Below, piece by piece: positions 11,353 to 53,812 of a DNA stretch of 64,000 nucleotides. Under the pieces are notes generated by a model, which saw only the letters and a list, made by a program, of their open reading frames with translations, made no database searches and was not told the DNA's origin. Origin of the DNA: a virus (taxonomy: Duplodnaviria; Caudoviricetes); IMG/VR virus record IMGVR_UViG_3300037067_013660, positions 132,896 to 196,895 of that record. One strand, given 5' to 3'. The position numbers and the translations under genes were made by a program. How positions within the stretch are numbered: the first letter of the stretch is position 1; every line of letters begins with the position of its first letter.

Positions 11353-11458
11353 CTTCGTTCTCCTTGTCTGCACATGTTGCAATCAAACCACGACGCTGCC
11401 TGCCTGTAGATTAAGCATTATCCATCTCCTGCAACATCCTCCATACCATAGCCTTCAT

Positions 11459-12686
11459 CCTTCTTCAGCGTGGAGACCCCTCCCTTTAGGGGAGGGAGGA
11501 AACGCCGCTCCTTCGTTCAAGTTTGGAAAACACGTTATACTTTAGTAGATGAAGATCATAGCAAAAATTAAGTTGATGCCCGACACCACCCAAGCCAAGG
11601 CGTTGATCCGCACGTTGGAGGCGGCGAACCTTGCGTGCAACAAGATCAGCGTAGTGGCGTGGAAGAAGAAACTGTTTCAGCAGATTTCTCTCCACAAGAT
11701 CGTCTACAGACCCGTCAGGGATCATTTTGACCTCAGTGCTCAGATGACGGTCAGGTGTATCGCCAAGGTAGTGGACGCCTACAAACTGGACAAAGAAACC
11801 AAGAGGGAATTTAAGAAGCATGGGTCCATTGCTTACGACTCTAGGATCCTGACGTACTTTACAGATAAAAAGCAAGTGTCGATCTGGTTGTTGGGTTTGG
11901 GTCGTGTCAAGATGTCGTTCCAAGCGGGTAAACGTCAGATGCGGCTTTTGCAGGTTCAGCAGGGAGAGTCTGACCTTATTTATCGTAAAGGAGAATGGTA
12001 CCTCCACGCTGTTTGCAACATTGAGGAACCTGACGCACTTGATCCAACCGACGCCATCGGTGTGGATCTTGGGGTCCAGAACATAGCGGTCACGAGCGAT
12101 GGAGAGTTCTATACTTCCGATCAAATAGAGTCTACTAGACAGTGGTACAGTAGTCGTAGGGCTGTTTTGCAATCGGTAGGAACCAAGAGTGCTAAAAGGA
12201 GGCTCAGACAAATATCTAAAGGACAGAGTAATTTTCAACGAAACGAAAACCACCGGATCTCCAAGAGTTTGGTCAAGGAAGCTAAACGCACGAAACGTGG
12301 GATTGCCCTTGAGGATTTGACGGGCATTAACACGCGGACCAGGGTTAGGAAGGCGTCTAGATCCAAACGCATGAACTGGAGTTTCTTTCAACTGAGAAGT
12401 TTTATTGGCTACAAGGCTAAGTGGGCTGGAGTTCCCGTCTACTTGGTAGACCCAGCCTACACGAGTCAGCGATGTAATCGGTGTGGCCACATCAGTCGAA
12501 AGAATCGACAGAGCCAGGATAAGTTTTGTTGTCAGGATTGTGGCTATAGGATTCATGCGGATCTCGGTGGAGCTAAGAACATTAGAGGTCTTGGTAGAAA
12601 GATCATAAAGGGTTGTCGTCAACCAACCTATGGTAGCGGTCGAAAGACCAGTTACAAGCCCCTTCCTTTAGGGAGGGGTAGTTGAC
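11459..12686 (+). mobile_element. IS200/IS605-family TnpB-only (IS1341-like) element
   Basis: Follows TTCAT; left hairpin CCCCTCCCTTTAGGGGAGGG; right hairpin CCCCTTCCTTTAGGGAGGGG ending GTAGTTGAC. Confidence 0.88.
11549..12685 (+). CDS. tnpB: RNA-guided endonuclease TnpB
   Basis: RuvC motifs IGVDLG, IALEDL, IHADLGGAKN; Zn finger TSQRCNRCG...CQDCG. Confidence 0.95.
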   Translation: MKIIAKIKLMPDTTQAKALIRTLEAANLACNKISVVAWKKKLFQQISLHKIVYRPVRDHFDLSAQMTVRCIAKVVDAYKLDKETKREFKKHGSIAYDSRILTYFTDKKQVSIWLLGLGRVKMSFQAGKRQMRLLQVQQGESDLIYRKGEWYLHAVCNIEEPDALDPTDAIGVDLGVQNIAVTSDGEFYTSDQIESTRQWYSSRRAVLQSVGTKSAKRRLRQISKGQSNFQRNENHRISKSLVKEAKRTKRGIALEDLTGINTRTRVRKASRSKRMNWSFFQLRSFIGYKAKWAGVPVYLVDPAYTSQRCNRCGHISRKNRQSQDKFCCQDCGYRIHADLGGAKNIRGLGRKIIKGCRQPTYGSGRKTSYKPLPLGRGS

Positions 12687-13186
12687 TTCGTCACCTTCTT
12701 GAATCTGCCCTTGGCGTCTCGTGGCTGTTCTGCCGCAAACTCTCGATAAAGTTCTCGGTCACGGTCAGACCATCTGGCTTGGCGAGCCGGAGGCACAGGA
12801 ACACTGAATGGATCGTCACCCATGACCCTAGTGTAACCGTCCAGCGGCACCTTCACGGGCGTCATGGTTGGCCAGTAGGCGACTAGCAGACAAGGCGTTC
12901 TAGGGCCTGTCTCTTTGAACTCCGGAGGATCTCCGTAGTCGTAGCTATCGATACCCCAATGCGGCTTGGTGCCAGGAATGTGCCTGCCTCGAAGCAACCA
13001 CCTGAATCCAACGACCCAACCGACTGGCTTCGGCCCCTCTAACTGTCCACGCGATTTAGCGGGTTGTGGCTCCCACCGTGCAGCCGCACCGTCGTGTACC
13101 CGGACTAGCTCGGTGTGGACCGCCACCAACTTACCCATCAGCTCTCGGGCGAACCAGTCTGGAATCTGTGGTTTCTTGCGTGACAT
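12668..13186 (-). CDS. Hypothetical protein; last 5 codons supplied by the IS end
   Basis: Ends QPRDAKGRFKKVTK then reads into the element (STTPP*). Confidence 0.6.
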   Translation of the reverse strand: MSRKKPQIPDWFARELMGKLVAVHTELVRVHDGAAARWEPQPAKSRGQLEGPKPVGWVVGFRWLLRGRHIPGTKPHWGIDSYDYGDPPEFKETGPRTPCLLVAYWPTMTPVKVPLDGYTRVMGDDPFSVPVPPARQARWSDRDRELYREFAAEQPRDAKGRFKKVTKSTTPP

Positions 13187-13249
13187 CTAAACGTGTTTCC
13201 TCGTACTCACGTGCTTTTGGTTCAAACCAAGTACATGAGAACAAAATGT

Positions 13250-13426
13250 CTACCATGATTCCTGTATCTCGTCCCGGACCTGCATGAGCAACTGGCCCAA
13301 CAGGTTCCTACCCTTATCTTTACACTTACCGCAGTCACACGAGCCCCATAGATTGTCGTGCCAGGAGTTGCCCTCTACGAGTTTCTGCGTACCGGTCGCG
13401 AGCAGACGTTCCTGTAAGTCCGGCGC
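13250..13426 (-). pseudogene. NADAR/YbiA-family gene, C-terminal remnant
   Basis: APDLQERLLATGTQKLVEGNSWHDNLWG...GRNLLGQLLMQVRDE begins at the IS right end; no start codon. Confidence 0.85.
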
Positions 13427-13427
13427 G

Positions 13428-14699
13428 TCAACTACCCCTAGCTAAAGCAAGGGGCTTGTAGGATCCAGTCCTACAACTTTTCTGGTTTCTACGAAGCCAC
13501 TTACGTCTCAACCATCGTTGAAACGCAGAGGTGTCTTCTCCACCAGCGTAACTTCCCGGTGCTGCACCGGTAGATTTATTAAACAGATACAGTAGTGTTA
13601 GGTTTCTAGCGGCGTTGATGTCTCGATCATGGACAGTACCACAGACAGAACAAGTCCATTGCCTTACGCTAAGGTCTTTAGTTTCCCTGTGGCGTTCTCC
13701 ACAAACGTGGCAGATCTGACTACTGGGAAACCACTTGCTTACCGTGATGACCAATTTACCTCTTTGTTCTGCCTGCTGTTTGAGGATTGACCGAAACATA
13801 CCAAACGCCAGACGAGTGACAGACCGTCCAAACCGTTTCTTATGCTTTAGTTTGCTACGTTTTGCTAAACCCGAGAGATCAATATCCTCCAACACGATGA
13901 CGTCGTGGCGGTCTAGCAATTTATTAGCATAGCGATGAAGCTGATCTGTCCGTCTGTTCCTTATGTACTCGTGGATTTTGGCTACCTTGATCTTCTGTTT
14001 AGCGTAACCATTGGATCCTTTCGTTTTCTTATTCAGTTTCCTTTGTTGCCGTTTGAGTCGCCACTCTTCTTGTTTTAGCCAATCCAGAGGTTTGGGTCTC
14101 GCCCCCGACGGCGTGACAAAAAGAGAAGCAAAAGAAAAGTCTAAGCCTATTACTTTAGTATCGTCTATTTCGTCATTAAGTACATCGGGTTGTTCTGTCA
14201 AAATAGAAGCGTAATATTTACCAGAGGGATCTTGCGAAACCGTAACGCTTTTGATCTTGCCAAACAACCGACGGTGGAAAACTGTTTCGACTAACCCCAA
14301 CTTTGGAAGTTGTAACTTTCCATCTTGAATTCTTATATTTCCACGAGAACAGTTGGTTGTGTAGCTTCGTCTAGCCTTGTGTTTCTTTTTCCACGTAGGG
14401 AACCCAGATTTCTTTTTCTTCTTAGGGTTCTTTCTGTCTTTTAGAAACCGTCCTAACGCTTGCTTTATATTCATCCAAGCGTTACACAGAGCATATGAAT
14501 CTACTTCTGCTAGATAAGGAAACTCTTCTTTGTAGTGAGCTGGTGTAGGATAAGTAAACTTCTTGGTCTTGACGTAAGATGATTTAAGGTCCTCCAGCAT
14601 AAGGTTCCATACCAGACGAACACAGCCAAACGTTCTCTGGATCAACTGAGCTTGTTGATCGTCTGGGTAGATCCTATATTTGTACGCCTTATGGATCAC
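13428..14699 (-). CDS. tnpB: TnpB with N-terminal HTH_OrfB_IS605
   Basis: KAYKYRIYP...FGCVRLVWN; IGLDF, VLEDI, HDRDINAARN; CHVCG/CSVCG. Confidence 0.95.
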   Translation of the reverse strand: MIHKAYKYRIYPDDQQAQLIQRTFGCVRLVWNLMLEDLKSSYVKTKKFTYPTPAHYKEEFPYLAEVDSYALCNAWMNIKQALGRFLKDRKNPKKKKKSGFPTWKKKHKARRSYTTNCSRGNIRIQDGKLQLPKLGLVETVFHRRLFGKIKSVTVSQDPSGKYYASILTEQPDVLNDEIDDTKVIGLDFSFASLFVTPSGARPKPLDWLKQEEWRLKRQQRKLNKKTKGSNGYAKQKIKVAKIHEYIRNRRTDQLHRYANKLLDRHDVIVLEDIDLSGLAKRSKLKHKKRFGRSVTRLAFGMFRSILKQQAEQRGKLVITVSKWFPSSQICHVCGERHRETKDLSVRQWTCSVCGTVHDRDINAARNLTLLYLFNKSTGAAPGSYAGGEDTSAFQRWLRRKWLRRNQKSCRTGSYKPLALARGS

Positions 14700-15109
14700 G
14701 TTTGCTCTGTTCTTTGTTGTTCCACATATTGCTTCAAAATATCGATCGTGACGTTGCCGGTCGTCGCGATAAAATACGATGGACTCCAGAAAGAATCACC
14801 CCACAATTTATCCTGAAGGAAACTCCTGTGTCGCTTCCTGATGGCTCGGGAACTATGTCCCTTCAGGATGTTGATGAACTTCGTGATGTCGAGCGTTGGT
14901 TTGGCTCGGAACAAAACGTGGACATGATCAACACCACATTCTTGTTCGACGACTTCTACGTCGAAGTCTTTCGCGATGGATTCAAACGTCGTCTTGACGT
15001 CCGATACCAACGCTTTCGACGTAAATACTTTCTTGCGGTACTTCACCACGATGATCAAGTGGTAGACCAAGGAAAATACTGCGTTGCTAGTTTTATCTAA
15101 CCTATACAC
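14696..15109 (-). CDS. tnpA: IS200-type Y1 (HUH) transposase TnpA
   Basis: YHLIIVVKYRKKV, HUH motif DHVHVL, KGHSSR, FWSPSYF, catalytic helix LKQYVEQQ. Confidence 0.96.
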   Translation of the reverse strand: MYRLDKTSNAVFSLVYHLIIVVKYRKKVFTSKALVSDVKTTFESIAKDFDVEVVEQECGVDHVHVLFRAKPTLDITKFINILKGHSSRAIRKRHRSFLQDKLWGDSFWSPSYFIATTGNVTIDILKQYVEQQRTEQT

Positions 15110-15239
15110 TACCGTAGCCTCCTTCTACTAAAGCATAACCTATTTTCTTGACTTTTGTGAAGGATGGTTGTAAAACGCATCTTGAAGAGTCGGCTTCCTC
15201 CCCCACCTGAAGGAAGTGGATCCCAGCCGACAGGAACAG

Positions 15240-15731
15240 GTTGGATTCGGGCAGCCAGGAGTTGCCGCCCGCCGCAACCTTCTGTTTCACGGTTTCGATT
15301 TGTTCTTTTGTCCTGGGCACACGGGTAAAATCCCACAGGCGGTCTTCCGCGATCAGGGCATCGACGTCCGCTTGGATCAAATGGTGATTCCAATGGCCGA
15401 GGAAACAATTCCAGTAGAGCCTGTCTACTTCAAGACGAACCAGCATCGTCGTGGTATCTGGATCTAGACCGTCGCATCTTACGTTTCGTTCCGCCATGGC
15501 CAAGATTTTGGGATGGTCTCGGGCGATGGGCTCAGCACCGTACGCCACAGGGTCGAAGAACTCGTTTCCGTACCACTGCTCGTAAAACCGCTTGGCCTCC
15601 GGTGCTAGGCCAACACCGTCGCAATAACAGCACGTACTCTTCTTGCTGCTGTACGGGTTCACGTAGCCTATCCACGTTTTGTTCAACGGCCAATCAAAAT
15701 CCAGCGAAACTCGCTTCAGTGTTCTACCCAT
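15240..15731 (-). pseudogene. Phage hypothetical gene truncated by the IS605 element
   Basis: MGRTLKRVSLDFDWPLNKTW... reads into the IS left end after NSWLPESN. Confidence 0.65.
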
Positions 15732-16155
15732 GATGTTGCTCCTGTACGTCGTCACTTTTCAGATATAGTTCTTTGTATTTAGCCTGGCTATGCGCTATCC
15801 ACTCTTCCGTGATGACCAGGGATTCTCGTACCTGATCCAAATTTTTCTCTAACTCATTAATTCGCCGCTGCACCTCAACTAGTATCCGGTTGGCAGTAGC
15901 TAGGTCCTCAAGCCAGTATCCCATGAGATCCCTGGTCGTTACCTCACGTACATCAGTTAACCGATACAACCACTGCTCTTCTTCATACGTGTTGACCAGG
16001 GTGTCTGGATTCCACTCATCTATGTAACGAACGCGCCGCCAGTTACCGGACTCGGGATTCCGGGTCAGCCACACCTCAGAGGTCAGGTCAGTATCGCGTG
16101 CTACCGCAGTGCCGGTGTGGGTAGGTGCGTCGGGCTGTATTTTATCGTGGTTCAT
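15724..16155 (-). CDS. Hypothetical coiled-coil protein
   Basis: GGAGG RBS; C-terminal heptad pattern. Confidence 0.6.
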   Translation of the reverse strand: MNHDKIQPDAPTHTGTAVARDTDLTSEVWLTRNPESGNWRRVRYIDEWNPDTLVNTYEEEQWLYRLTDVREVTTRDLMGYWLEDLATANRILVEVQRRINELEKNLDQVRESLVITEEWIAHSQAKYKELYLKSDDVQEQHHG

Positions 16156-16182
16156 TTTTCCTCCGGTGAAGTAGTGATCTAC

Positions 16183-16560
16183 CTACTGTTTGGCGTCGAA
16201 CGCCCGCAAGGCCGCGACCGCTGCTTCATGACGCTTCTGCGCTTCTGCTACCCGCTTGGCGTACCGTTCTGCTTCCTGTTGCGCGTTTTGCAATATCTTG
16301 GCCGTGGACTCGATTTCTTTTTCCAGCGGCTTCCGCATTTCCGCGCTGGTGAGGGGCCGTAGGGTCGAGATGTCGATGCGCTCGGACGCAACGGACCAAA
16401 CTTTACGTGCCCCTACATAATCCCCAGTTTCTCGATTGAAGCGGCTACCGTTATCCGTGATGACGAATTTGGGTGTCAGCCGCGCCCGCATCATGTGGCT
16501 GCTAATGATTCGGTCGCCTTGGTAGTAGTGTATCCACCGAACCACGTGGGTCTGTTTCAT
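16183..16560 (-). CDS. Hypothetical protein
   Basis: RLTPKFVITDNGSRFNRETG beta motif plus coiled coil. Confidence 0.6.
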   Translation of the reverse strand: MKQTHVVRWIHYYQGDRIISSHMMRARLTPKFVITDNGSRFNRETGDYVGARKVWSVASERIDISTLRPLTSAEMRKPLEKEIESTAKILQNAQQEAERYAKRVAEAQKRHEAAVAALRAFDAKQ

Positions 16561-17355
16561 GGATCTACCTGAATCCCGACTTCCGTAAAATCGTGTACGA
16601 ACCCGATGGGCAGATCACCGCCACGGCACTGCTCGCTGAATAAGTATCCGCAGCATCGAGCCATCGTGTACACGGCCGGGTAGTTGACCCCGTAGCAACC
16701 AACCAGCTCATCAATAGTCCCGTCCGGTGGACCAGTTCTGGTTGCCGAGGCCCTTTGCATCGCGATCACGGCGGCATATAGGTCGGAGAATGTCATTCGT
16801 CCGCCTCGAATCCGTTGATGATTTTCAGCGCCGTCCACGCACCGTCTCTGTATCCATCATACCTACCCTCGCGATATTCGTCTTTCCATGGACGACTACC
16901 GGAAGCGCCCACGTCTGGCTCCACTGCCTCGGATGCCCACGCGCACAGCTTCCTTACTATCGACTCGTAGTCCGGCGCGTCGGTCATTCGTCCACCTCGA
17001 TTCCAGCGTCTATGAGCGCGGCTCTAGTGGGAGTTCCGGCATGATGAAAAGACAAAAGCTGATCCACCGCCTGTAGCATCGCGGGGAGGGCAGCGTGGGC
17101 GAGTTTGTATGCATCCCACAACCGATGCGAGTAGGCCACCACAAGGCCCTTGTCGGCAGCGTCGAACGTCTTTGCTGCCTCCCGTATTTCACTCAGTTTC
17201 ATGATCGGTCTCCTCTCTCGTGGTGAAGCAAGAGCAGTTATCAGCCAGGCGATTCTGGTAAACCTCGGCCGTGGCCATTGATGGCAGCGGTGGCTTGCAC
17301 CAGCCATGGAACTGAATGCCGTCACGCCGCCACCACCGGCACTCCCCACACGTCC

Positions 17356-17733
17356 TCATGGTCGCACCTCCAGGAGCGCGGCGAGGTCGGCCGTGGAGAG
17401 GGTGCCGCGCATACTGCCGAGACAGGAGTCACTGGCTCGTATCCGCGCCCCTATCCCCTCCCGCAGCCGCGCAAGCTCGGCCTCGGCCTTCTCGGCGCGT
17501 TCCTCGGCACTCGCGGCCCTGGCACCAAGTTCACGGTAGCCGTCTAGCTTCTGGTCAGCGGCCCGCTCCACCATGAAGCGGTAATCCGCCTCGGCCTTCT
17601 CGGCGCGGGCGCGAAGCGCGTACAGCCTCTCGTCTGGCTCGTAGTGATCACACCTCACACCGCACGCGGCGGCTAGGCCCATCACGCACCCCTCGTACTG
17701 GCTCCACTTGTCGCAGGTCTTGCAGTCACTCAT
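17356..17733 (-). CDS. Hypothetical protein (RAEKAEAE coiled coil)
   Basis: Paralogous segments at 24657-24941 and 25297-25800. Confidence 0.6.
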   Translation of the reverse strand: MSDCKTCDKWSQYEGCVMGLAAACGVRCDHYEPDERLYALRARAEKAEADYRFMVERAADQKLDGYRELGARAASAEERAEKAEAELARLREGIGARIRASDSCLGSMRGTLSTADLAALLEVRP

Positions 17734-17758
17734 CTCTCATCCCTCCTTCCACGCGAGC
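17588..17758. repeat. 171-bp near-identical repeat, copy 1 (copy 2 at 25655-25825)
   Basis: Direct comparison; one mismatch seen. Confidence 0.9.
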
Positions 17759-17939
17759 TTCCGACGAAGGGCCGCTAGGGTTGGGGCTACAAAAGACGCA
17801 AGGTAACCACTAGCCACCCACCCGACTGGGCATCGCTCAATTTTTAAGTCGCGCCATGAGTAGAACGCACCGATAGACACCAGCCGCTCTCGCCGCAGCC
17901 GCGCACACCTTTGGCCCTGCTTGTCATAGTAGATATCGG

Positions 17940-18410
17940 TCACGATGTTTCCCTCATGCGCACGGCCGCCACCTTGATCCGATGGACGGTACGGGGAAAC
18001 AACACCTCGCCGAGCACTATCCACTTGCCGTCTACCTGCCCCTTGACTTCGATGGCGTACTCGCCCTCTTTGACCTTGGCGGCAACGCCAACGAGATTTC
18101 TGCGGTACTTCGTGTTGATCATTTCGTTTCCCTTGATGTGATCCACTTTGACCTCTTCCACCAACGCCCTACCGGCGTTTTCCATTGCGACCAGAATTGC
18201 AGATGCCCTGTTCTTGCCTGGCCAGTACGGACTGTCGAGCAGATCCAAGGCCGCGTCGATAAGTTGCCTGCGCAAAACCTCTTCCTTTTCGCACGCCTTC
18301 TCAGCTTCTTTGCGGGCACGATCTGCCTCATCGATCAGTCCTTTTACCGATTCAGCCACGTCCAACCAATTCTTTAATATTAGTTCAAGATGCGCCCTTA
18401 CTTCGGACAT
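17940..18410 (-). CDS. Hypothetical protein
   Basis: GGAGG RBS; operon geometry. Confidence 0.55.
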   Translation of the reverse strand: MSEVRAHLELILKNWLDVAESVKGLIDEADRARKEAEKACEKEEVLRRQLIDAALDLLDSPYWPGKNRASAILVAMENAGRALVEEVKVDHIKGNEMINTKYRRNLVGVAAKVKEGEYAIEVKGQVDGKWIVLGEVLFPRTVHRIKVAAVRMRETS

Positions 18411-18754: not shown

Positions 18755-19149
18755 AGACTCAACACCCGAATGTCATGGCACTGGACGGTCGCAAGCTCTG
18801 TCCGAAGCCTTTCGATCTCACGGCGTAACCCGTCGACCTCTTCGCGGTGGTACACGATGGCGTCGTCGTGATCCTTCCAGATGATGCGCTCGATGCGGAT
18901 CCGCTCCCGCAGGCGTTTCCAGACACGGCGCAAAGTATTCTTGTAGAAGAGGACTCGGGCACCAAGTGCCGCAACGGTGTCGGTACCGATGACTTCGCTA
19001 CGGTCCCGCACGTCGACCCGGAGGGTTTGGGTACCTACGGGACCATCCGCTCGCGTTAGTGGTGCGGGTGATGTTTCCCATTGTGCCGTACCCTCGGGCT
19101 CCATGTCGCCGTCGACGAGCTTGCGTTTTCGCATAACCTTCGTTTCCTT

Positions 19150-27227: not shown

Positions 27228-27485
27228 TATTTCGTCGCTTTTTGGTAAGGTGCGAAGATGCCGTTTGTATCGCTGGATAGTTGTTTACTCGACAAGTTCA
27301 TGGGCGGTGGCCTCGGCAACCGAGTAGCCCATGCTGCTGAGATCTAGTTCCACGCAGTACGAAACCCACGTACCATTTTCTGTGGGGAAATAGCAGCGTA
27401 GGTATGGTTGAGCTAGTAACATCTGTATTGTTTTGTTCATGGTCATCGTACCTAAACTTTCTTGCCGTCGACGTAACTGCTTCAT

Positions 27486-27583
27486 ATCTCCATTGTCGTA
27501 CTGTGGACTTTTGGTGTAGGGTTGTACGCCATCAGGTTGTAACACCTGTAGAAACCCCTGCCTTTAGGCAGGGGAGCAGTTAC
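27486..27583 (+). mobile_element. 98-bp IS200/IS605 mini-element / omegaRNA-like remnant
   Basis: Follows TTCAT; ends CCCCTGCCTTTAGGCAGGGG-AGCAGTTAC; removal joins ORFs 27482-27697 and 27285-27545 in frame. Confidence 0.6.
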
Positions 27584-27693
27584 AATGGACGCGTGGTGCC
27601 AGACGTCGGTCCTGAAGTCCTGTGTGACCAAGAGGTCCAGTCCTGTGAACCTTCCGGCCACAAAGCTACAGGGGTCCACCATCCACATACGCA

Positions 27694-28089
27694 TCACAAC
27701 ACCTCACGCAATTCATCAATGTGCAGGCGACGCCGCAACACCGCCAACGCTTTGTTGATGATTTTCTCGACGCCAGACTTCGACAGGTTCATCAGGAGTC
27801 CCACTTCTTCTAACGATGCGTCGCCACGATCCGCCACGTCGAGGGCACAGGTTTCGGGAATTTCCCAAGGCTCCATCGACGGGAAGTTCACGACGACGCT
27901 TTTGTGGTCACGGCCGTCCTGGTAATTAAGGTACAGGTGATGACGGCAGCCAACGAACGGACACGGCCGTACACCGTGACGACATTGTTCACGATCTACT
28001 GGACGCGGTTCTGACGATACTTCGGTAGCGTCGTCCTGCAATTTTATAACGCGGGGGCGGTCTGCCCTGCGGATCCTAGGCGTCGGCAT
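27694..28089 (-). CDS. Sigma-70 region-4-like HTH protein with Cys/His-rich N-terminus
   Basis: RPCPFVGCRHHLYL...ETCALDVADRG.ASLEEVGLLMNLSKSGVEKIINKAL. Confidence 0.7.
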   Translation of the reverse strand: MPTPRIRRADRPRVIKLQDDATEVSSEPRPVDREQCRHGVRPCPFVGCRHHLYLNYQDGRDHKSVVVNFPSMEPWEIPETCALDVADRGDASLEEVGLLMNLSKSGVEKIINKALAVLRRRLHIDELREVL

Positions 28090-40858: not shown

Positions 40859-40860
40859 CG

Positions 40861-44317: not shown

Positions 44318-44646
44318 CTGTGTGGAATATCTTTTCTTATTCTAACCGCCCACTCTTCTTCGCTCTCTTGGTATTCTTCTGCATATTTGCGCGCAACGAT
44401 TTCTGCCATGAAGTTACCAGCCGCGAGAATCAACAGTTCTGTTAGCGTACCACTACCCCGTGGCCAAATAAACTCGACTTCAGTATACAAAGACTCTCCA
44501 GGTAAATACCCTCCCTCCAAATATCCTGCAATAACGTCTTTTGCAGAGTACCCAGCATATTCAAAAGATCGTGAAAATTCATTTTTGATGAACTCGCGTA
44601 AATGCTCTGGACGTACATCATCCCAATTAAGTGCAGCGTCAAGCAA
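44314..44646 (-). CDS. Acidic hypothetical protein (start uncertain)
   Basis: AT-rich; ATGA-coupled to 41435-44317. Confidence 0.45.
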   Translation of the reverse strand: MLDAALNWDDVRPEHLREFIKNEFSRSFEYAGYSAKDVIAGYLEGGYLPGESLYTEVEFIWPRGSGTLTELLILAAGNFMAEIVARKYAEEYQESEEEWAVRIRKDIPHR

Positions 44647-46069: not shown

Positions 46070-46086
46070 TGTCGAATCACCTACGA

Positions 46087-46983
46087 TCAGATGCGGTACA
46101 AATACCGCCTAAGCACATGATTAAGTTCTCGTGTGTGTTCAATCAATACCTTGGTTTTATCCTCAAGCGTATATAGATTATCCAGTAACGCGTTTATGTC
46201 TTTTTTAGAAGACCAATCCAACAGACCGTTGTCGCCGACGTAGTGATGAGACAGGTCATCAAGCTGTCGACCCAGATTCTGTGCCATCCTGTATTCTGCG
46301 ATGTCGTCTAGATCTACGGTGGTGAAATCAATCTTCGCCGCAGGTCTAAACTTACTGGTGGCATTCCTGTGCGCCTCTGTGTTGGGGTGTACCCTGATCC
46401 AAGGAGCGTACACCAAGTCCCATGCGGGTCCCAGCGCCTTGATGATGCGGCGTTTCAGACTACGGAATTCCGACGCAAGTTCCGTTGTTGTGTGGATCTC
46501 GCGCACGGCAAAGCTGTTGATGATGGCGAGGACGGCGTCGCGTTCCGCGTCCGTCAGGTCGGCCTCCAGGTCGTTGTAGAACATCATGAACCACTCGAGC
46601 GAACCGTGGGCCGCCGCGCGGGCCGTGTCGTAGGTTTCTTCGTAGCCATAGTCGTCCGTCATGACAACGTTATCTCGGTAATGTGGCATCGCGATCGCAT
46701 TCCTTAACTCTGGGGTTCTCTCGCCGTCGAACTCTTGTTCCATGGCGTCCAACATGACGTAGTAGTCCGGGTCTTCCATCAGGTGGGCCCACGCGATCTG
46801 GGCAGTGGCGCCCAAGGCATCATCCGTGACGTTGACGCGCTCGTCCATCTTGGTGCCGTGCTCCAACTCCACGTCCATACCGGCGGCCAGGTCCTCGGGC
46901 GTGAACGCTACGTCGTCCCAACGGATCCCGATGGCCTCGCCGACGTCGGCCGCTTCCTCGGGCGTAAAGGCTGTGCGCCGCAT
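46087..46983 (-). CDS. Modular protein with N-terminal DUF5661-like domain
   Basis: MRRTA leader; GMDVELEHG...AQIAWAHLMEDPDYY. Confidence 0.7.
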   Translation of the reverse strand: MRRTAFTPEEAADVGEAIGIRWDDVAFTPEDLAAGMDVELEHGTKMDERVNVTDDALGATAQIAWAHLMEDPDYYVMLDAMEQEFDGERTPELRNAIAMPHYRDNVVMTDDYGYEETYDTARAAAHGSLEWFMMFYNDLEADLTDAERDAVLAIINSFAVREIHTTTELASEFRSLKRRIIKALGPAWDLVYAPWIRVHPNTEAHRNATSKFRPAAKIDFTTVDLDDIAEYRMAQNLGRQLDDLSHHYVGDNGLLDWSSKKDINALLDNLYTLEDKTKVLIEHTRELNHVLRRYLYRI

Positions 46984-46992
46984 CGTGGTCTC

Positions 46993-47748
46993 CTAGTCGT
47001 CCAACCGTTCCGTCAGTTCCATCACCGTGTCCATCATGGTGACGTCGAAACGTCCGCGTGCATCGATGCAACCTTCAAGACGCGGGACCCAATACGCGAG
47101 GGCACGTTCCTCGATCATGGACGAACCCGTTATCTTGGTGGCGGTCCGCAGGATACCGCGTGCGCGGCGTACCAATTCATTTATGTCGGCCGCGATCTCC
47201 TCTAACTCAATACCGAGTTCCTGCAGTTCGTCCTGGTCGTCAATCCTGTTGTTCGGCATCGCAACTCTCTCCTGGTCTCGTGTTAATTCCGCGTAGCCCC
47301 GGTCGGGCTGTTGTACCAATTCCCTGAGCCGTACCCAATCGTTTGGTTCCCGGCCCGCGACGAAATCGTGGAACAGGTAGCGGATCGTAAAATCGGTGGC
47401 GCGGAACGCTTGGTTGGTTCGGGGATCCCGTAGGATCACACGGGGCATCGGATCGTCGGTCAAGTGTTCTTCAACGAAGCGCCGGACCTTCGCCAAACTC
47501 GAAACTCCGAGCTTATTGTAGACGACGAACTCGGCGAACGTTTCGTCTACGTCGTCCTGTTCGTCGGGATCGTACACGTCAACGAACGCCGAAACCTTCA
47601 GGTCGGTTTCGGTCTGAATGGCCCGCAATAATGCCTGTAGCGCACGAAACTGTGCCTCGGGGTCCAGTGGTTCGTCCAATGCCTCCAAGCGAAACTGGAC
47701 GTGGAACTGGCCCTTTTGGTAGAAGTTATCGTCGCGGTAGTGGGGCAT
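46993..47748 (-). CDS. Two-module acidic protein
   Basis: Starts MPHYRD; internal RVAMPNNRID. Confidence 0.6.
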   Translation of the reverse strand: MPHYRDDNFYQKGQFHVQFRLEALDEPLDPEAQFRALQALLRAIQTETDLKVSAFVDVYDPDEQDDVDETFAEFVVYNKLGVSSLAKVRRFVEEHLTDDPMPRVILRDPRTNQAFRATDFTIRYLFHDFVAGREPNDWVRLRELVQQPDRGYAELTRDQERVAMPNNRIDDQDELQELGIELEEIAADINELVRRARGILRTATKITGSSMIEERALAYWVPRLEGCIDARGRFDVTMMDTVMELTERLDD

Positions 47749-48125
47749 TAGCGTCGCGGGAAGTAACTACGTTCGAACTCTTCAGCCTCGTCAACTTCGT
47801 TGGATCTTCTCTCCAACCTTTCCTCTTCGTCCATGCCCTGTAGGATAAGCTCGTGACCCAACTCAGACAATTCTGCGGCTTGAGAAAAGTGTTGAGCCGC
47901 GAACTTACAAGCATCAGCACAGGCCGCCAGGGCATCCATATCCATGGACAAATCAGTCAGTACGTCCCGATCGCGTAGGGCGTCGGAAACGTCAACAACG
48001 TTTAGTTGACTCTGTAATTCCAGCAAAGCATTCAACGCCATTTTCAGTGGCTGTTCTGCTCGAATGAATAAATCGGCACCCGGATCGTAAAGTTGAACGG
48101 AATCTGATTTTCTAAAGTTTCTCAT
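47748..48125 (-). CDS. Acidic helical protein
   Basis: MRNFRKS leader; GA tract upstream. Confidence 0.6.
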   Translation of the reverse strand: MRNFRKSDSVQLYDPGADLFIRAEQPLKMALNALLELQSQLNVVDVSDALRDRDVLTDLSMDMDALAACADACKFAAQHFSQAAELSELGHELILQGMDEEERLERRSNEVDEAEEFERSYFPRR

Positions 48126-48137
48126 GATGCTCTCTCT

Positions 48138-49466
48138 CTACCGTACCGGTAGGTTGGTTTGCCGGGGATCACGGAACTTCCCCGCGTCCTCTTCCAAATA
48201 TTCTTCCAGGTACTCCTCCAACATCCTGGCGAGCACCTGTTGGATCGCGGGCCACGAGGCTTCTGACGCCGCGTTGCTACCGGCATTACTGTACCCAGAA
48301 AATCCCAGGTCGTCCTGCGTGATGCCGTCGTCTCCAAACACCGCCAAAATGTCGTCGACCCAATCGCACGACCATCTCTCGTCACACAAGAACGCACTCA
48401 AGACGTGACCATCGGCCATCAGGGTGTCGAGGATTTCTTGTCCCCGTTCGATCGAAATCTGCATCTTGTTGCTGACGATATCGTCGACCGTATTGAACCA
48501 CTCGGATTCAAACTCAGCGACAAACTTATTGATCGGTTCGTAGTCGACGTCCGCGTAGCCGTGCTGGTCGGCCCAATTATCTTGGAGGTAGCGATAAAAC
48601 TCGTCCAGGTTGGCGAGCAAGAGTTTCGGCGTCACGCCGTACTGGCGTAACGTCTCGACCAGCGCGGGATTGTGTTGCAACTCGTACTCAACGTACCTGC
48701 GCAGACGATCTGGATCGTACCGATACTCCAAATTATCAACAAATTGTTCAACCTCTTCCCACGCTTTATCCGACAGGAAATCAGCTAGGTCGTCCATACC
48801 GGCGGTCCTGTACGACGCCGTCACAGCATCTAGTTTAGGCTCACGCAGACGGTTACGATACCGTTGTTCTGACTCATCAAGACGTGGACGCCACTCACGG
48901 AAACTGATTTTTTCCAACGCGTCCAGCGGCAGCCGCACGTCCATTTCGTAACGCAACTCGTACGGGATGGTTTCCCACTCGTCCCCGACTTGGCGGTACA
49001 TAGGAAACAAGATGGCGTCGGCACCGCCGGGGCTTTTCTTGAACGTGTTGATGCGGCCGATCGCCATTTCGTTAGTTTCGGGCAGCGAGAATTTGACGAA
49101 ATCACCGATCCCAAGATCACCGCGAATATTTAGTGGCACGCGACCGCGCCCAGCGGCACGAACAAATGCAATGCGATCATGACCGCGAATCAGTTGGCTG
49201 ACCGCGTACTCCAGGTCCATCATGCGGGTGACGTCGTCTTCGTCGTCCCGTGGTTCTGGTTCGGCCGTCAGGACCTCGTCCAACACACGGGCCAACGCAT
49301 CCAGCTCGTCCATCGACGCCATGGTTTCACCATAGGCGTTGAGGCGACTACCCAGCGCGTAGATAGGGTCGCCAGAACTTCCGTGGAGCCAAAGAATTAC
49401 CTCGGGGTCTAGGTCCGACGTGTCTACGGGAACATTGTACTCTGGACCGAGTTGTTGGGAACGCAT
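48138..49466 (-). CDS. Modular acidic putative head protein
   Basis: AGGAG RBS; linkers DRIA, VRAA, YRTA. Confidence 0.65.
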   Translation of the reverse strand: MRSQQLGPEYNVPVDTSDLDPEVILWLHGSSGDPIYALGSRLNAYGETMASMDELDALARVLDEVLTAEPEPRDDEDDVTRMMDLEYAVSQLIRGHDRIAFVRAAGRGRVPLNIRGDLGIGDFVKFSLPETNEMAIGRINTFKKSPGGADAILFPMYRQVGDEWETIPYELRYEMDVRLPLDALEKISFREWRPRLDESEQRYRNRLREPKLDAVTASYRTAGMDDLADFLSDKAWEEVEQFVDNLEYRYDPDRLRRYVEYELQHNPALVETLRQYGVTPKLLLANLDEFYRYLQDNWADQHGYADVDYEPINKFVAEFESEWFNTVDDIVSNKMQISIERGQEILDTLMADGHVLSAFLCDERWSCDWVDDILAVFGDDGITQDDLGFSGYSNAGSNAASEASWPAIQQVLARMLEEYLEEYLEEDAGKFRDPRQTNLPVR

Positions 49467-49494
49467 TGTTTTCTCCTGGTTAATCCACCTAAAC

Positions 49495-49524
49495 AAAAGG
49501 CCGAACTGCTAGGCTCGGCCTTTT
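49495..49524 (-). terminator. Intrinsic terminator downstream of the capsid gene
   Basis: AAAAGGCCGA...TCGGCCTTTT hairpin with T-runs on both strands. Confidence 0.7.
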
Positions 49525-49565
49525 GAATCGGGGGATTATGAATTCAAGGTGGGACCTATTGGATG

Positions 49566-50660
49566 CTACAGCTTCGTGCCCTTCGACACACCGCGAGCGT
49601 TACCGATCACGATGCACTCGGACTGACCAATCCACCAGCCCTTACGGGGGCTGCCGTCGACCGCGTGCTTGTCGATCGGGTGGCTGTACATCTTGACGAG
49701 CGGGAGCTTGGCGCCGAGGGTCGCGGGGGACGCCAGCATGTAGACCTCACCAGCCTCAAGGCACCGCAGGGTGTCGTAACGATACCCGTCGGTGAATACC
49801 TCGACGCCGAAGATCTCGCCGAACTTGCCCTCCTCGAACAGCATGTGCTGCTCGACCGGCGAGTACACACCGTGCCAGTCGGTGTCGGCCAGGATGTCGT
49901 TCTGCAGGTCAACCGCCAACAGGCAGGTGGCGGGCTGCAGGCCCCAACCCCAAACCTGATCGCGCAGCGTACCGAACACCGTGGGGGTGAAGGCACCGAA
50001 CGAAACGTTGTTGTTCTGCAGGGTCGAAGCCTGGTCCAACAGGAACTTCGTAACATTGTCCTCCCGCACCATCGTGGCGACGAGGGCGTCGTTGTACTTG
50101 GTCTCTAGGTAGGTCTGGCCCGCGTACCAGAGGTCGGACTCATCGATCAGAACGTTGGCGATGAGCCAGAATTCCTCTGGGTAAATGAACTTGGGCCGAG
50201 GCACGGACTCACGAACGGCACCAGCGGACGTCATGTGCCAAGCCTGCACGTCGTGCTGGTTGATGAACACGCGAGGCGTCCCCTTCTCAGGGGTGTCGAC
50301 GCGCGCCAGGATCTTGTCCGTGAAGGCCATGCGGCCGAGAGTTTCGGAAAGGCTGTCGGCAAAGACTTCACCGAGGCGCTCGAACGCGCCGCCGCGAAGA
50401 CCTGGATCCTGCAGTGCCGCCTCAATGAGACGGGCGGTAGCGCCGTCGTCGGCCTGCGCCGTGCGCTCCATCTGCCCCTCGTTCAGCATCTGGCCCATGG
50501 TGGCCAAAAGCTCACGAAGCCCTGCCTTGTCGTTGGAGTTGTACTGCCCCTGGGAATTCACCAGGGGGGTGGAGGTTTGCTGATAGCCGCCGCTGCGGGT
50601 CCGGACCCACGCGTTACTCTCGGCGACGTTCTGACCCTGTCGGGTGATCTTGAATGTCAT
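49566..50660 (-). CDS. Major capsid protein
   Basis: 364 aa, strong codon bias, followed by a terminator; pattern (GQYNSNDK..L, MVREDN, GEVYML...LG, KGWW...E...IGNARGV) and gene order recall RSL1/Lu11-type jumbo phage capsids, from memory. Confidence 0.8.
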   Translation of the reverse strand: MTFKITRQGQNVAESNAWVRTRSGGYQQTSTPLVNSQGQYNSNDKAGLRELLATMGQMLNEGQMERTAQADDGATARLIEAALQDPGLRGGAFERLGEVFADSLSETLGRMAFTDKILARVDTPEKGTPRVFINQHDVQAWHMTSAGAVRESVPRPKFIYPEEFWLIANVLIDESDLWYAGQTYLETKYNDALVATMVREDNVTKFLLDQASTLQNNNVSFGAFTPTVFGTLRDQVWGWGLQPATCLLAVDLQNDILADTDWHGVYSPVEQHMLFEEGKFGEIFGVEVFTDGYRYDTLRCLEAGEVYMLASPATLGAKLPLVKMYSHPIDKHAVDGSPRKGWWIGQSECIVIGNARGVSKGTKL

Positions 50661-51036
50661 TCCTTTTTCAGCGTAGATACCCTTCCCTAAAGGGAAGAGA
50701 CGAAACGCTGCTCCTTTTGTTGTAGGTGAACAGATCCCTTGGGTCGTAATTTACGACCCAAGGGGGTTGACAGATAAGTTCTCTTACGAGAGATCTGTCC
50801 ACCAGCCGGGGCTGGCGTTAGAGCCTCTTCGCCGATGTTAAGCTGCGTTTTTACACTCGTCACACTTCCCCTACCCTCATAGGGATGTTTAATGATCGAG
50901 CCATAGAGCCCAAAACTAGAGGAGTATTTTGGGGTATGATGCATCAGCTTAACGTAGTCCTTCCTTTTGAGGACTTGGGCTAGTCAACCTGGGGCTTGCT
51001 TGCACAAGCCCCTACCTTTAGGTAGGGGCGATTGAC
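50661..51036 (-). mobile_element. ORF-less IscB-type element carrying an omegaRNA (HEARO-like)
   Basis: Minus strand GTCAAT-CGCCCCTACCTAAAGGTAGGGG...GTTGACTAGCC...ACTACGTTA...AACATCGGCGAAG, colinear with 53570-53812; second hairpin end at 50661-50715; TCAT flank. Confidence 0.88.
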
Positions 51037-51052
51037 GTTACGTCACCTTTCG

Positions 51053-51850
51053 TTAGACAACGGGATATTCAACGCCCAGGTAAGGATCGCTGGCAGAAGG
51101 CAGCGAAATAACCCGACCGAAGCAAGTTCCCAGAGCGTTGTTGTCGAAGATCGTGAGGACGCCACCAGCACCAGTCACGGGGTTGCCGTTGACGGCGGTA
51201 CCGAGCTGCTGGTTCAGCACCCACGCGGCATCGGCGTCATACATGGTGGTGTAGACGATGCAATGCTCACGCGCGATCATGACCTTGTCGAAGGTGTCTT
51301 CGGAGCCGCGACCGATGGCGGACTGACGGAGGATCTCACGGGACTCCGCAACCGTCAGGTTCCAACGATAACGCACGAAGAAGGCGTGGCCAGCGTCGGC
51401 GGCAGCAAACGTGATGATGCCGGTCGCGGCCGCCAGCGTAACGCTCACGCCCGCAACCGCAGCGCCCGCAACCTCAAGCTCCACGTTTGCCGTGGTGTCG
51501 AACACGTAGGCATCGGCAAAACCGGAGTAGCCGTTGGCCACGAGGTTGCTGTGGTCCAGCGTGAAGGTGTAGGGGCCAGGAGCCGCCGGAACGGTTCCGA
51601 CTTCGTAGTTCGTAAAGGTGGTGGCCAGGATCTTGCCGTTGATGGCAAACCCCAGGGGAACGGCATCGCCGAACACTGCGCCCGTGATGCTGGTGGTGGC
51701 CTGCTGGGTAGTGGTTCCGCCCGCTACCATAAGCTGGCCCTCTTCGACGAGATTCGTACCAGCGACCAGCTCGTACTCTTCACGCCGACCAATGAGGGAG
51801 CGTGTCATGTCCCACTTGGACTTAACGCTCGCGCCGGGTTGAATAGCCAT
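51053..51850 (-). CDS. Head decoration/structural protein
   Basis: Immediately upstream of the capsid gene; GAGGA RBS; ends GRVISLPSASDPYLGVEY. Confidence 0.7.
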   Translation of the reverse strand: MAIQPGASVKSKWDMTRSLIGRREEYELVAGTNLVEEGQLMVAGGTTTQQATTSITGAVFGDAVPLGFAINGKILATTFTNYEVGTVPAAPGPYTFTLDHSNLVANGYSGFADAYVFDTTANVELEVAGAAVAGVSVTLAAATGIITFAAADAGHAFFVRYRWNLTVAESREILRQSAIGRGSEDTFDKVMIAREHCIVYTTMYDADAAWVLNQQLGTAVNGNPVTGAGGVLTIFDNNALGTCFGRVISLPSASDPYLGVEYPVV

Positions 51851-52019
51851 AATGAATCCTCCTATGGCAAAGTTGGTGCCCTGTTGTGGGCAATTTCCGT
51901 CTGCACCGCCGACACACGTCGACAGACAAATTCAAAACAACAGCGTAATGCGGGTGATGGTAGGGAAGGGATTCCCTGATGGTGTAATGTGGAAGGCTTC
52001 TACTAAAGACTAACGTATT

Positions 52020-52298
52020 TTAGGAAACTACGGAACGAAGCTGCTCAACAAAACCAACGCCGTCTTGGATATCGGTAGGACCATACAGGTACGTTCTGCT
52101 CTTTTGCGAATCCGTCAGGAAATAGCGGATGGCCAAGTCACCAGCCTGCGTATCGATCCCAAGATCGGCCGCGTAGTCGACGATACGTTCTAGACGACGT
52201 AACGTCGCCTCACGCGTAACATCATCCATCTGGTCCACAAGACCGAAGTCGATGGCTTCGAGCCCTACGATCAGGACTTTGATTTCTCGCGAAATCAT
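52020..52298 (-). CDS. Hypothetical protein
   Basis: Start ATG overlaps the IscB stop. Confidence 0.55.
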   Translation of the reverse strand: MISREIKVLIVGLEAIDFGLVDQMDDVTREATLRRLERIVDYAADLGIDTQAGDLAIRYFLTDSQKSRTYLYGPTDIQDGVGFVEQLRSVVS

Positions 52299-53641
52299 CG
52301 AATCTCCAGCGCAGAAACCCCAAGCTTTAGTTCTGGGGAGGAAGCGCTGCTCCTTTTCTGGATTAGTAAAGTGCTGGCTTTTTCTACTAACCGTAGTTTC
52401 TTGTAGCTTACGCTAGGCGTTACGGTAGTACCGTCCAAAAGCCTTACGTCAAACTGTCCACTAGATCTACGACCAAACACAAAACACTCCTGACCTTTCA
52501 ACACCACTTTGTCAAACAACTGAAAACCATGAACATAACGAGCGGCTTTGTTGACTTTGCGGATCCCACCTCTCGTAATGGTGGCTTTATGGAGCTGTCG
52601 ATTTTGGCCACGAACTTGACGCATAGCACATATTTCGTTTGGTGCCGCTAAAGCATTTCCACTGGTGCAGCGTGCGTCTACTATGTGTGACTTTTCTAAA
52701 CCACATAACTTCCTAGTGTACTTCGTAACGTAACCGTAAGTTTCAGTTACGTTGGGGTATAGATTCTTGACGGCCTGAAGAACAAATCTCCTCATGGTTG
52801 TGATCTGCCCAGCGTCCCTAAAAGAAGGACGCGAACGCTTGAACGTCCTGGTTAGCTTATCTCGGTGGACTGTGTCGTGACAAGTTTTGCACAATGTAAT
52901 TAAATTATCCGGAGAATCACCGCCGGTTTTCCTAGATTCAATGTGGTGCACTTTCAAAATCTTATCCTTGGATTTACCTCGACAGTGTTGACAAACATGA
53001 CCATCTCGGTACAGTACATACGCCCTGACATTTTCAAATCCTAACTGGGGACCTTGCTGGTACGCCGTTCCTTGGATGCCTGGATTCTTTATTTTCTGGA
53101 TGTCAAATTGGGCAGCCTCAATTACGACATTAGTGATGGGCAGGAGTTGGTGAACCAGCTCGATCACCTTAACATGAACCGATACTTTGTTCTGAACCGA
53201 TGGAGCCAACCACCCTTTAGGTTTAGTACGGTTCTGGAATCTAGGTTGGCGATAACGAGTTTTTCTACTACGTCTACTGTTACGGAACGCTTTACGACTA
53301 GACATCAGATTTTGAATGTCGGTCCTGAGCTGAACCTCTGCCTCAAACAGCACCTGTTTAGTGGTTGTAGCTGATAGACCAATATGCTTAGTACCAGCGT
53401 CTACGCCTAATGAGATCGGCTGAACGTTTCCACCCGATGGACCAAGCAACTGGATGGTGAACGGAGTCCTCCTCACCACCTTTGCTTTTCCGGCCTCCAA
53501 CAGTTTCCTAGCCTTCCTAGGATACGTTGGCATTAATGGTTTGCCACGAGACGAGATAACGAAGACCCGAAGGTTTCGTTCCTTAGCCGAAGCTAAAGTC
53601 AGTTGTCCTTCGCCAATGTTAGGATGCGTTACCATGTCCAA
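52295..53641 (-). CDS. iscB: RNA-guided endonuclease IscB (true start probably near 53570)
   Basis: GKPLMPT, RuvC LGVDAG / VIEAAQFD / SHIVDA, Arg-rich bridge helix, HNH VHHI...NLITLCKTCH. Confidence 0.96.
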   Translation of the reverse strand: MDMVTHPNIGEGQLTLASAKERNLRVFVISSRGKPLMPTYPRKARKLLEAGKAKVVRRTPFTIQLLGPSGGNVQPISLGVDAGTKHIGLSATTTKQVLFEAEVQLRTDIQNLMSSRKAFRNSRRSRKTRYRQPRFQNRTKPKGWLAPSVQNKVSVHVKVIELVHQLLPITNVVIEAAQFDIQKIKNPGIQGTAYQQGPQLGFENVRAYVLYRDGHVCQHCRGKSKDKILKVHHIESRKTGGDSPDNLITLCKTCHDTVHRDKLTRTFKRSRPSFRDAGQITTMRRFVLQAVKNLYPNVTETYGYVTKYTRKLCGLEKSHIVDARCTSGNALAAPNEICAMRQVRGQNRQLHKATITRGGIRKVNKAARYVHGFQLFDKVVLKGQECFVFGRRSSGQFDVRLLDGTTVTPSVSYKKLRLVEKASTLLIQKRSSASSPELKLGVSALEIR

Positions 53642-53812
53642 TACACTGTCCCTACCCTCACAGGACTGTTTAATACTGGACCACAGAGCCAGGAACTAGG
53701 ACTCGCATTCTTGGGTGTGATCGTCATCCTAACGTAGTTCTCCTTTCGTAGAACTTAGGCTAGTAAGCATGGGCTCCTAAAAGCCCCCGCCTTTAGGCGT
53801 GGGGTTGCTTAC
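52299..53812 (-). mobile_element. IscB (OMEGA) IS200/IS605 element
   Basis: Terminal hairpins at ~52305-52350 and 53783-53804; TCAT flank; empty site restores an ATGA stop/start overlap. Confidence 0.9.
53570..53812 (-). ncRNA. IscB omegaRNA (HEARO-like) scaffold, 3' end approximate
   Basis: GTAAGC...GCTTAC-TAGCC stem, ACTACGTTA, AACATTGGCGAAG directly upstream of iscB. Confidence 0.85.

Follow-up and report, generated by a model that had tools for sequence, protein, structure and literature searches.

Genomic setting and element inventory

We examined a 64,000-nucleotide stretch of phage DNA (hereafter the window), the final 64 kb of a 196,895-bp IMG/VR virus record (IMGVR_UViG_3300037067_013660) with a CheckV completeness of 56%, which carries several insertion sequence (IS) elements of the IS200/IS605 type. 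Three of these, one with TnpB cargo, one with IscB cargo and one with an omegaRNA and no protein gene, lie directly 3' of the tetranucleotide TCAT and are the main subject here (Table 1). The contig encodes four TnpB proteins, one IscB and one Y1 TnpA, has two full-length matches to HEARO (the omegaRNA of IscB), and holds seven IS200/IS605-type elements if a short module at 27486, the "mini", is counted. Its coding density is about 91% and about four fifths of its genes lie on the minus strand, according to a crude map of open reading frames (ORFs), and its major head protein is 28% identical to the counterparts in the jumbo phages phiRSL1 and Lu11. An initial annotation of the window had placed four elements 3' of TCAT, all in the same orientation. 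The orientation is correct, as all four lie on the plus strand, and the TCAT flank holds for the elements that start at 11459, 50661 and 52299, though not for the mini, which is without a left end.

Table 1. Features of the IS200/IS605-type elements in the window (window coordinates; a slash marks an element boundary).
Feature	Position	Strand	Basis or detail
TnpB element: TCAT target	11455-11458	+	On the coding (-) strand, the A-TGA stop of a 166-aa phage gene
TnpB element: non-autonomous IS200/IS605 element, TnpB cargo	11459-12686	+	Pfam, end profiles, strain L064
TnpB element: left end	11459-11530	+	Guide GAGA, inner hairpin CCCCTCCC with GGGGAGGG
TnpB element: tnpB	11549-12685	+	Pfam OrfB_IS605 (PF01385) and Cas12f1-like_TNB (PF07282)
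TnpB element: right-end hairpin	12659-12678	+	Guide CAAG, end ...TAGTTGAC/
TnpB element: putative guide part of omegaRNA (flank)	12687-12706	+	Predicted from the model of TnpB and its right-end RNA (reRNA)
Autonomous IS605-type element	13427-15240	-	tnpA 14696-15109, tnpB 13428-14699
IS605: left end	within 13427-15240	-	Starts CCTGTTCC..., guide GGAT, hairpin CCACTTCC TTCA GGTGGGGG
IS605: right end	within 13427-15240	-	...TAGTTGAC/
IS605: CCAA target	15241-15244	-	Guide GGAT
Mini: right-end-like hairpin module	27535-27586	+	CCCCTGCC TTTA GGCAGGGG AGCAGTTAC; relic, not a complete element
OmegaRNA-only element: TCAT target	50657-50660	+	ATG(A) start of the major capsid gene (49566-50660, -)
OmegaRNA-only element: gene-less IS200/IS605 element	50661-51036	+	Left-end guide GATA, right-end guide CAAG, end ...GATTGAC/
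OmegaRNA-only element: full-length IscB-type omegaRNA	50817-51036	-	Rfam HEARO, 147.5 bits
OmegaRNA-only element: predicted guide of the orphan omegaRNA	51037-51052	-	16 nt 5' of the scaffold (CGAAAGGTGACGTAAC), from the IscB model
IscB element: TCAT target, ATGA junction	52295-52298	+	Overlaps the iscB TGA stop and the ATG of a 92-aa phage gene
IscB element: non-autonomous element, IscB cargo	52299-53812	+	Left-end guide GAAA, right-end guide AAAG, end ...GCTTAC/
IscB element: iscB	52295-53641	-	Pfam RRXRR (224 bits) and HNH
IscB element: omegaRNA	53598-53812	-	HEARO, 149.6 bits, full length
IscB element: predicted guide of the omegaRNA	53813-53828	-	Predicted; 3' end of a 128-aa gene

A common left end and a common target

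The left ends of the TnpB, omegaRNA-only and IscB elements are homologous, each scoring 60-65 bits against a joint profile in nhmmer (64 bits for the omegaRNA-only element), and no other match on the contig exceeds 16 bits. They have a common layout, which consists, in order, of TCAT, 8 nt, an outer stem CAGCG, the tetranucleotide GA[N]A, an inner hairpin, and AGGAA.CGC.GCTCC, in which the final part reads GC(C/T)GCTCC. The words TTCAT (11454-11458), GTCAT (50656-50660) and ATCAT (52294-52298) immediately precede the three elements, and the sequence upstream of TCAT is unrelated among them. Profiles and DNA folds place hairpins at both ends of all three, C-rich and G-rich with TTTA or TAAA loops; these are subterminal and imperfect, there are no terminal inverted repeats, and the elements belong to IS200/IS605 in this respect. 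Right ends are related among five plus-strand elements, with a CCCC..CC TTTA GG..GGGG hairpin followed by ..TTGAC/ or ..TTAC/.

The flanks are equally informative. Removing the IscB element leaves ...GAA CCA TGA as the end of the 128-aa gene, removing the TnpB element leaves ...AAA TGA as the end of the 166-aa gene, and in both cases the flanking reading frames are restored exactly with no target duplication. The positions at gene boundaries given in the initial annotation, including the join AA/A TGA at the empty 11459 site, are correct. Elements of IS200/IS605 also characteristically insert 3' of a set tetra- or pentanucleotide with no duplication of the target, and here TCAT occupies this place at each of the three sites and in over 25 relatives. 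TCAT is phage DNA that lies outside the elements. Together, these data support the view that the three elements form one end-family with a common TCAT target, and that they are non-autonomous and require mobilisation in trans.

The two omegaRNA scaffolds are 68% identical and the three left ends are visibly divergent in alignment, which indicates that the elements are not recent copies of each other. The initial annotation had proposed that start-codon targeting lets them accumulate in a dense genome. Given this divergence, and since the same sites are filled in the one other strain locus examined for each element (L011 or L064), accumulation by copying within the phage is unproven; the elements may just as well have been acquired separately.

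Guides and target words

In IS608, the four bases that lie 5' of the hairpin foot recognise, by base pairing, the tetranucleotide to be cleaved (T-4:A-34 and C-3:G-35, the first two positions being crossed, A-2 unpaired; He et al. 2011, PMC3201880), and by the same scheme the last base of the cleavage site would pair with the fourth guide base. In the window, the left-end guides of the TnpB element (GAGA), the omegaRNA-only element (GATA) and the IscB element (GAAA) each fitted TCAT. A further TnpB element of the contig (TnpB#1) has the left-end guide AAAG with the site TTAC. Strain L011 confirms this boundary, as it carries another copy that follows TATTTAC at the place of window position 44501. 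The same complementarity is found at right ends, where the guide CAAG is matched to TGAC, AAAG to TTAC in the IscB element, and GAAG to TCAC in TnpB#1. The IS608 rule fits every end whose boundary can be fixed, and the pairs CCAA with GGAT and TTAA with AAAT served as controls.

The initial annotation had invoked a TnpA specific for TCAT. Because the guides GA[N]A, GGAT and AAAG predict exactly the three targets observed, such an enzyme is unnecessary: the tetranucleotide is read by the DNA guide of the left end and not by the protein (PMC3201880).

Relatives, filled sites and empty sites

The closest relatives of the TnpB element occur in other contexts after the same word, one with 85% protein identity after ATCAT (L065, recovered from the metagenome sample that also yielded the related phage L012) and one with 65% after TTCAT (L066). 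Relatives of the IscB, at 52-66% identity, are found in genomes of Bacillota, Chlamydiota and other groups. For 12 relatives from multi-copy genomes, homology between copies stops just after ATGAA on the IscB strand, and the end profile placed /ATGAA at 11 further loci, giving 23 of 23 among those with a full end match. A left-end motif scan of viral contigs returned 83 matches, mostly in a conserved coding region of other phages, with true left ends only in L100/L108 (after GTCAT), L129 (after TTCAT) and L138, to which we return below.

The TnpB element occupies the same site in strain L064. The omegaRNA-only element is present in strain L011 and missing from the relative L012, which is without both IscB-type inserts. 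The L012 capsid, 76% identical, likewise begins with ATGA (...GGAGGTGACTT/ATGAGT), 17 nt past the stop of the upstream gene and with no insert. Scans of viral contigs with three flanking proteins and TnpB yielded no close phage relatives with empty sites, and a metagenome scan for close relatives returned only a C-terminal fragment of the capsid. Another contig considered as a source of empty sites, L014, was set aside, being a mosaic with only 822 bp in common with the window and no empty site. For two other families, the window itself provides the empty site: position 44501 for the TnpB#1 copy in L011 (99.7% identical), and position 56078 for an 87%-identical relative of TnpB#4 in L011, inserted after AAATTCAA. 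The left end of TnpB#4 was not recognisable. These additional copies in L011 argue that transposition is ongoing in this phage lineage.

Coding content of the TnpB, IscB and omegaRNA-only elements

The cargo proteins retain their catalytic residues. In the TnpB protein, the RuvC D-E-D triad (GVDLG, LEDL and HADL, aligned to solved Cas12f/TnpB) and the zinc-ribbon TNB domain are present, and its predicted target is the empty site TTCAT/TTCGTCACC... under the TnpB/reRNA model. The IscB combines RRXRR/RuvC and HNH, its catalytic D and HNH residues align to solved IscB, and a HEARO omegaRNA lies immediately upstream, abutting the right end. In both IscB-type elements the HEARO models start exactly at the right ends (51036 and 53812). 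A weak HEARO match of 27 bits, below threshold, was also noted on the right end of the TnpB element (12594-12686, minus strand); it reflects the right-end hairpin common to TnpB-type and IscB-type elements.

The iscB frame lacks its own stop codon: translation would continue across the left end as far as the TGA of the target, which overlaps the ATG of the next gene, and the same is seen in two Anoxychlamydiales copies, though not in Sporosarcina or Exiguobacterium. At the opposite end, the right end (GTAA... on the minus strand) supplies an in-frame TAA to the 128-aa gene, leaving its protein unchanged. A role of the left end as donor of a ribosome-binding site was dropped as a general feature, given that a well-spaced GGAG exists only in the IscB element and in none of its relatives.

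The omegaRNA-only element, with both IS200/IS605 ends and no protein gene, is a palindrome-associated transposable element (PATE). On the IscB model, the predicted target of its orphan omegaRNA is the empty site followed by ATGACA. The 376 nt of the element now separate the original Shine-Dalgarno sequence of the capsid gene (AAAGGTGA) from its ATG, and AAAAAGGA abuts the ATG instead (window 50661-50672 and 51041-51052). Evidently, the phage tolerates this displacement in all strains seen.

Placement at gene junctions

All three inserts lie at gene boundaries, a higher share than chance would give, vs approximately 16% of the plus-strand TCAT sites of the contig that fall outside gene interiors. 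Among the IscB relatives, 10 of 18 distinct insertion sites have a terminal ATG that begins an ORF of 100 codons or more, as opposed to 18% of control ATGAA sites in the same loci (p = 4e-4), and the link to start codons seems general for this IscB family. Purifying selection is the simplest explanation of boundary placement in a dense phage genome. It also bears on orientation: because most genes are on the minus strand, tolerated ATGA junctions correspond to TCAT on the plus strand, which results in a common orientation. No sigma-70-like promoter was found on the minus strand in 50500-54300.

The TnpA-carrying element and the mini

The only intact TnpA of the contig belongs to the IS605 element and has 131 bits to Pfam Y1_Tnp, with HUH and the catalytic Tyr conserved relative to IS608 TnpA. 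The initial annotation was correct that this sole TnpA has a different target, and its target word CCAAC needs correcting to (T)CCAA, the final C being the first base of the element. Two comparisons fix the ends. In strain L064, which has no IS605, the intact NADAR gene reads AAGTTCCAA/GCGCCGG where the window has ...TAGTTGAC/GCGCCGG, and the left-end flank in the window is GAATCCAA/CCTGTTCC. Viral TnpA relatives (64-74% identity) have the guide AAAT and the flank TTAA/CC, a double compensatory change (AA->GG in the guide, TT->CC in the flank).

The differing target had been taken to exclude this TnpA from acting on the TCAT elements, which is not supported: the right ends of its element and of the TnpB element agree at 30 of the last 33 nt, while the TnpB proteins of the two elements are only 25% identical. 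In Sporosarcina, IscB elements (TTCAT) and a resident TnpA-TnpB element targeting TTGAT have a common inner hairpin, as would be expected of a single transposase acting on ends that differ in their guides. No TnpA in Sporosarcina or Exiguobacterium was found to have a TCAT-type left end, as the TnpA-TnpB element there targets TTGAT and has only the inner hairpin in common.

A simple insertion does not seem to account for the IS605 locus, which resembles a rearrangement associated with the IS. The element and a 172-aa ORF (15241-15755) stand in place of 775 bp of L064 sequence, which includes the N-terminal two thirds of the 145-aa NADAR and two small genes. Only the C-terminus of NADAR remains, at 13250-13426 on the minus strand, and a 13-nt sequence, GGCAACTCCTGGC, stands on both sides of the IS (window 13250-15817). 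An apparent in-frame confirmation of the boundary, in which joining the flanks at CCAAC/...TTGAC/ gives an open frame, was rejected as coincidence; the left flank is not NADAR, and L064 shows that the left-side flank was replaced and that TCCAA is the true target.

The mini, proposed as a TCAT-flanked element, comprises only a right-end-type hairpin and does not qualify as a PATE (27486-27586). Identity is 91% across 35 nt with the right end of TnpB#1, whose family targets TTAC, and 78% across 41 nt with that of the 11459 TnpB element. No left-end hairpin or guide was present within 27486-27534, and the guide GAAA of the module fails to pair with its own TTAC at position 4. The TTCAT 69 nt from the hairpin is merely the start codon of the next gene. 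The module lies within 208 nt between a sigma-like gene and the next gene, replacing a pyrimidine-dimer glycosylase gene (Pfam Pyr_excise) of which the first 9 codons (MRMWMVDP) are left and which is whole in the relative L088 (L088:2396-2728). A right-end hairpin beside a truncated glycosylase gene marks the mini as a relic of an IS-associated rearrangement. The sequence is identical in four other strains, which leaves no empty allele. In other strains a 70-aa ORF is called at this place (window 27482-27697, minus strand), which begins with the 9 Pyr_excise codons; its remainder is unrelated, with the right-end-like hairpin inside it. In L088, the contig itself terminates in an IS-type hairpin (GAAT CCCCTTGC TTTA GC) at the 3' end of its Pyr_excise gene.

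Other differences among strains and contig ends

A variable region lies downstream of the capsid gene. Around window position 49144, strain L011 has a 526-bp additional coding segment between genes (L011:7529-8056). The window has a 452-aa ORF (48138-49496) vs genes of 267 aa and 349 aa in L011, and a third variant of 442 aa was seen in a Logan contig. Both ends of the contig are simple tandem repeats, with CGTCGTCGTCCT units at C1:1-200 and units of about 15 nt, GCCCCACTGAGGT(C/T)T, at 196696-196895 (window 63801-64000). These repeats may be the cause of the assembly stopping there.

A proposed mechanism and its alternatives

The observations made directly are the anatomy and homology of the elements, their flanks, the fit of guide to target, and the intact catalytic motifs. 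On these we base an explanation that we consider probable: TCAT targeting encoded by a guide in the element, mobilisation in trans by a compatible Y1 TnpA, and survival at ATGA junctions. Each element would have been pasted as single-stranded DNA 3' of TCAT, with the guide GA[A/G/T]A, 5' of the inner hairpin, pairing with T, C and T of the target (C1-G2, C2-G1, C4-G4, with C3 unpaired), so that target choice would be encoded in the element DNA and not in the transposase. Any compatible Y1 TnpA could then move the TCAT elements, and the best candidate would be that of IS605, or a host homologue. In a genome that is about 91% coding, only insertions at TCAT words that coincide with ATGA start or stop junctions would survive, and the orientation of the IscB-type elements would allow the omegaRNA to be produced by read-through transcription of the phage gene upstream. 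Once an element has been excised, its empty site would be open to cutting by the nucleases, with a predicted target-adjacent motif (TAM) of 5'-TCAT for TnpB and 3'-ATGA for IscB, and recombination would restore the element. The acting TnpA, the nuclease activity and the homing are the steps that we infer.

Several points weigh against this explanation. The left-end hairpin of IS605 (CCAC TTCC...GGTGGGGG, with a T.T mismatch) differs from those of the TCAT elements, such that compatibility of the resident TnpA with them is a guess, and the host, with its own TnpA repertoire, may supply the transposase. The viral TnpB element in L138 (3900-4070) has the same left-end type and the guide GAAA, and its flank is GGTCAA, not TCAT; this is unexplained, either an exception to the guide rule or a decayed flank. 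The fifth base varies here (T, G, A) and is always T (TTCAT) in the IscB relatives, and the TAM domain of IscB may reject the phage's own sites. Lastly, this phage yielded no empty allele of any of the three TCAT elements: the one further strain locus examined for each (L011 or L064) is filled at the same site, which makes their present mobility a presumption.

A different reading is that the phage keeps the elements for a function, either RNA-guided cleavage of insert-free co-infecting phages (exclusion of markers around the capsid module) or control of capsid expression. The elements do occupy the same sites in the strain contigs examined, the orphan omegaRNA stands directly before the most highly expressed late gene and 1.3 kb from an intact IscB, and homing between co-infecting phages has been proposed conceptually (2026 review). 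We regard a retained function as unlikely, as all cis signals for transposition are intact, the 68% scaffold identity makes use of the orphan by this IscB uncertain, and guide matches are confined to the empty alleles of this phage and do not extend to the 76% relative. A bolder version, to which we would give only a small chance, holds that the end-family is tuned to ATGA junctions for life in packed operons without polar damage, and that the IscB and two omegaRNAs bracketing the capsid module effect RNA-guided marker exclusion or homing against insert-free relatives. The idea of tuning comes from the stop supplied upstream by GTAA at the right end, the target TGA borrowed by IscB, and the enrichment of relatives at start codons.

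The TCAT elements might instead depend on a separate TCAT-recognising transposase encoded elsewhere in the phage or host, with the TnpA in the window serving CCAA elements only. The resident TnpA element indeed has a different target and a somewhat different left-end hairpin, the contig represents only 56% of the phage genome, and with the closest IscB relatives in bacterial genomes, a host TnpA could plausibly have brought the elements in from a host chromosome. We nevertheless find a dedicated enzyme quite unlikely, because the tetranucleotide is read by the left-end guide (PMC3201880) and the guides account for all three targets, because the TTCAT IscB elements of Sporosarcina have the inner hairpin of a TnpA-TnpB element that targets TTGAT, because the right ends of the resident TnpA element and the TnpB element nearly coincide, and because one Geobacillus TnpA is predicted to mobilise about 50 tnpA-less elements of several families with different TAMs (Meers et al. 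2023). It is very improbable that boundaries were simply set at minus-strand ATG codons while the true ends lie elsewhere: this did happen for the mini, whose left boundary is without support, and start codons followed by A are common, but TCAT keeps the same distance of exactly 8 nt from the outer stem in the register of the aligned left ends, the word recurs at the ends of over 25 independent relatives whose contexts are unrelated, the guides are complementary, and removing two of the elements restores the frames exactly.

If guide-encoded targeting with mobilisation in trans is correct, this phage offers a natural illustration of target choice encoded in DNA, with TCAT, CCAA and TTAC used in one genome that has one visible transposase. 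It also places obligate mobile element-guided activity (OMEGA) nucleases with intact motifs in a jumbo phage, at the start of the major capsid gene, raises the idea of RNA-guided homing between co-infecting phages, and gives TAM predictions for a compact IscB and TnpB that may be of use to tool builders.

Comparison with known systems

Our finding is an instance of known IS200/IS605 biology and leaves the current picture unchanged. The additions are modest and mildly new: the occurrence in a jumbo phage, a single end type and target serving both TnpB and IscB cargo, and the exact placement at ATGA junctions. The closest parallel is in Geobacillus stearothermophilus, for which experiments had established most of what the initial annotation proposed. 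There, the IscB element ISGst5 has the measured TAM TTCAT, most tnpB and iscB elements are without tnpA and are predicted to be mobilised in trans, ISGst5-related PATEs exist, and IscB elements tend to point the same way as the gene upstream of them (Meers et al. 2023, bioRxiv 10.1101/2023.03.14.532601). Shared with ISGst5 and its PATEs are the lack of autonomy, iscB with a right-end omegaRNA, TTCAT at the left end, gene-less derivatives, TnpA in trans, and the upstream-gene orientation. Here, however, the setting is a jumbo-phage genome, the base before TCAT is T, G or A, the IscB frame runs through the left end to the TGA of the target, and the left-end type and target are common to a TnpB element, whereas the TAM of the ISGst2 TnpB is TTTAT.

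Compared with IS608 (ISHp608) of Helicobacter pylori, the common features are a Y1 HUH TnpA, subterminal imperfect hairpins, pairing by a 4-nt guide and the absence of duplications, and TnpB#1 even has the same AAAG/TTAC pair. The TCAT elements differ in an additional outer stem (CAGCG...CGCTG), the target TCAT, a right-end site of TGAC or TTAC, and the absence of tnpA. The nucleases resemble ISDra2 TnpB and OgeuIscB in their RuvC (and HNH) catalytic residues, in a guide RNA drawn from transposon end and flank, and in a TAM equal to the target (predicted here), yet they are distant from both, with phmmer scores of 44 bits to ISDra2 TnpB and 161 bits to OgeuIscB, and the ISDra2 TAM is TTGAT. 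Finally, the elements recall the Seg and Mob homing endonucleases of T-even phages, which are also selfish nuclease genes between essential phage genes and could bias inheritance in co-infection. Co-infecting phages have already been listed as possible targets of transposon homing (2026 review). In contrast to Seg and Mob, the specificity here would be RNA-guided, the elements are also transposable, and homing is only predicted.

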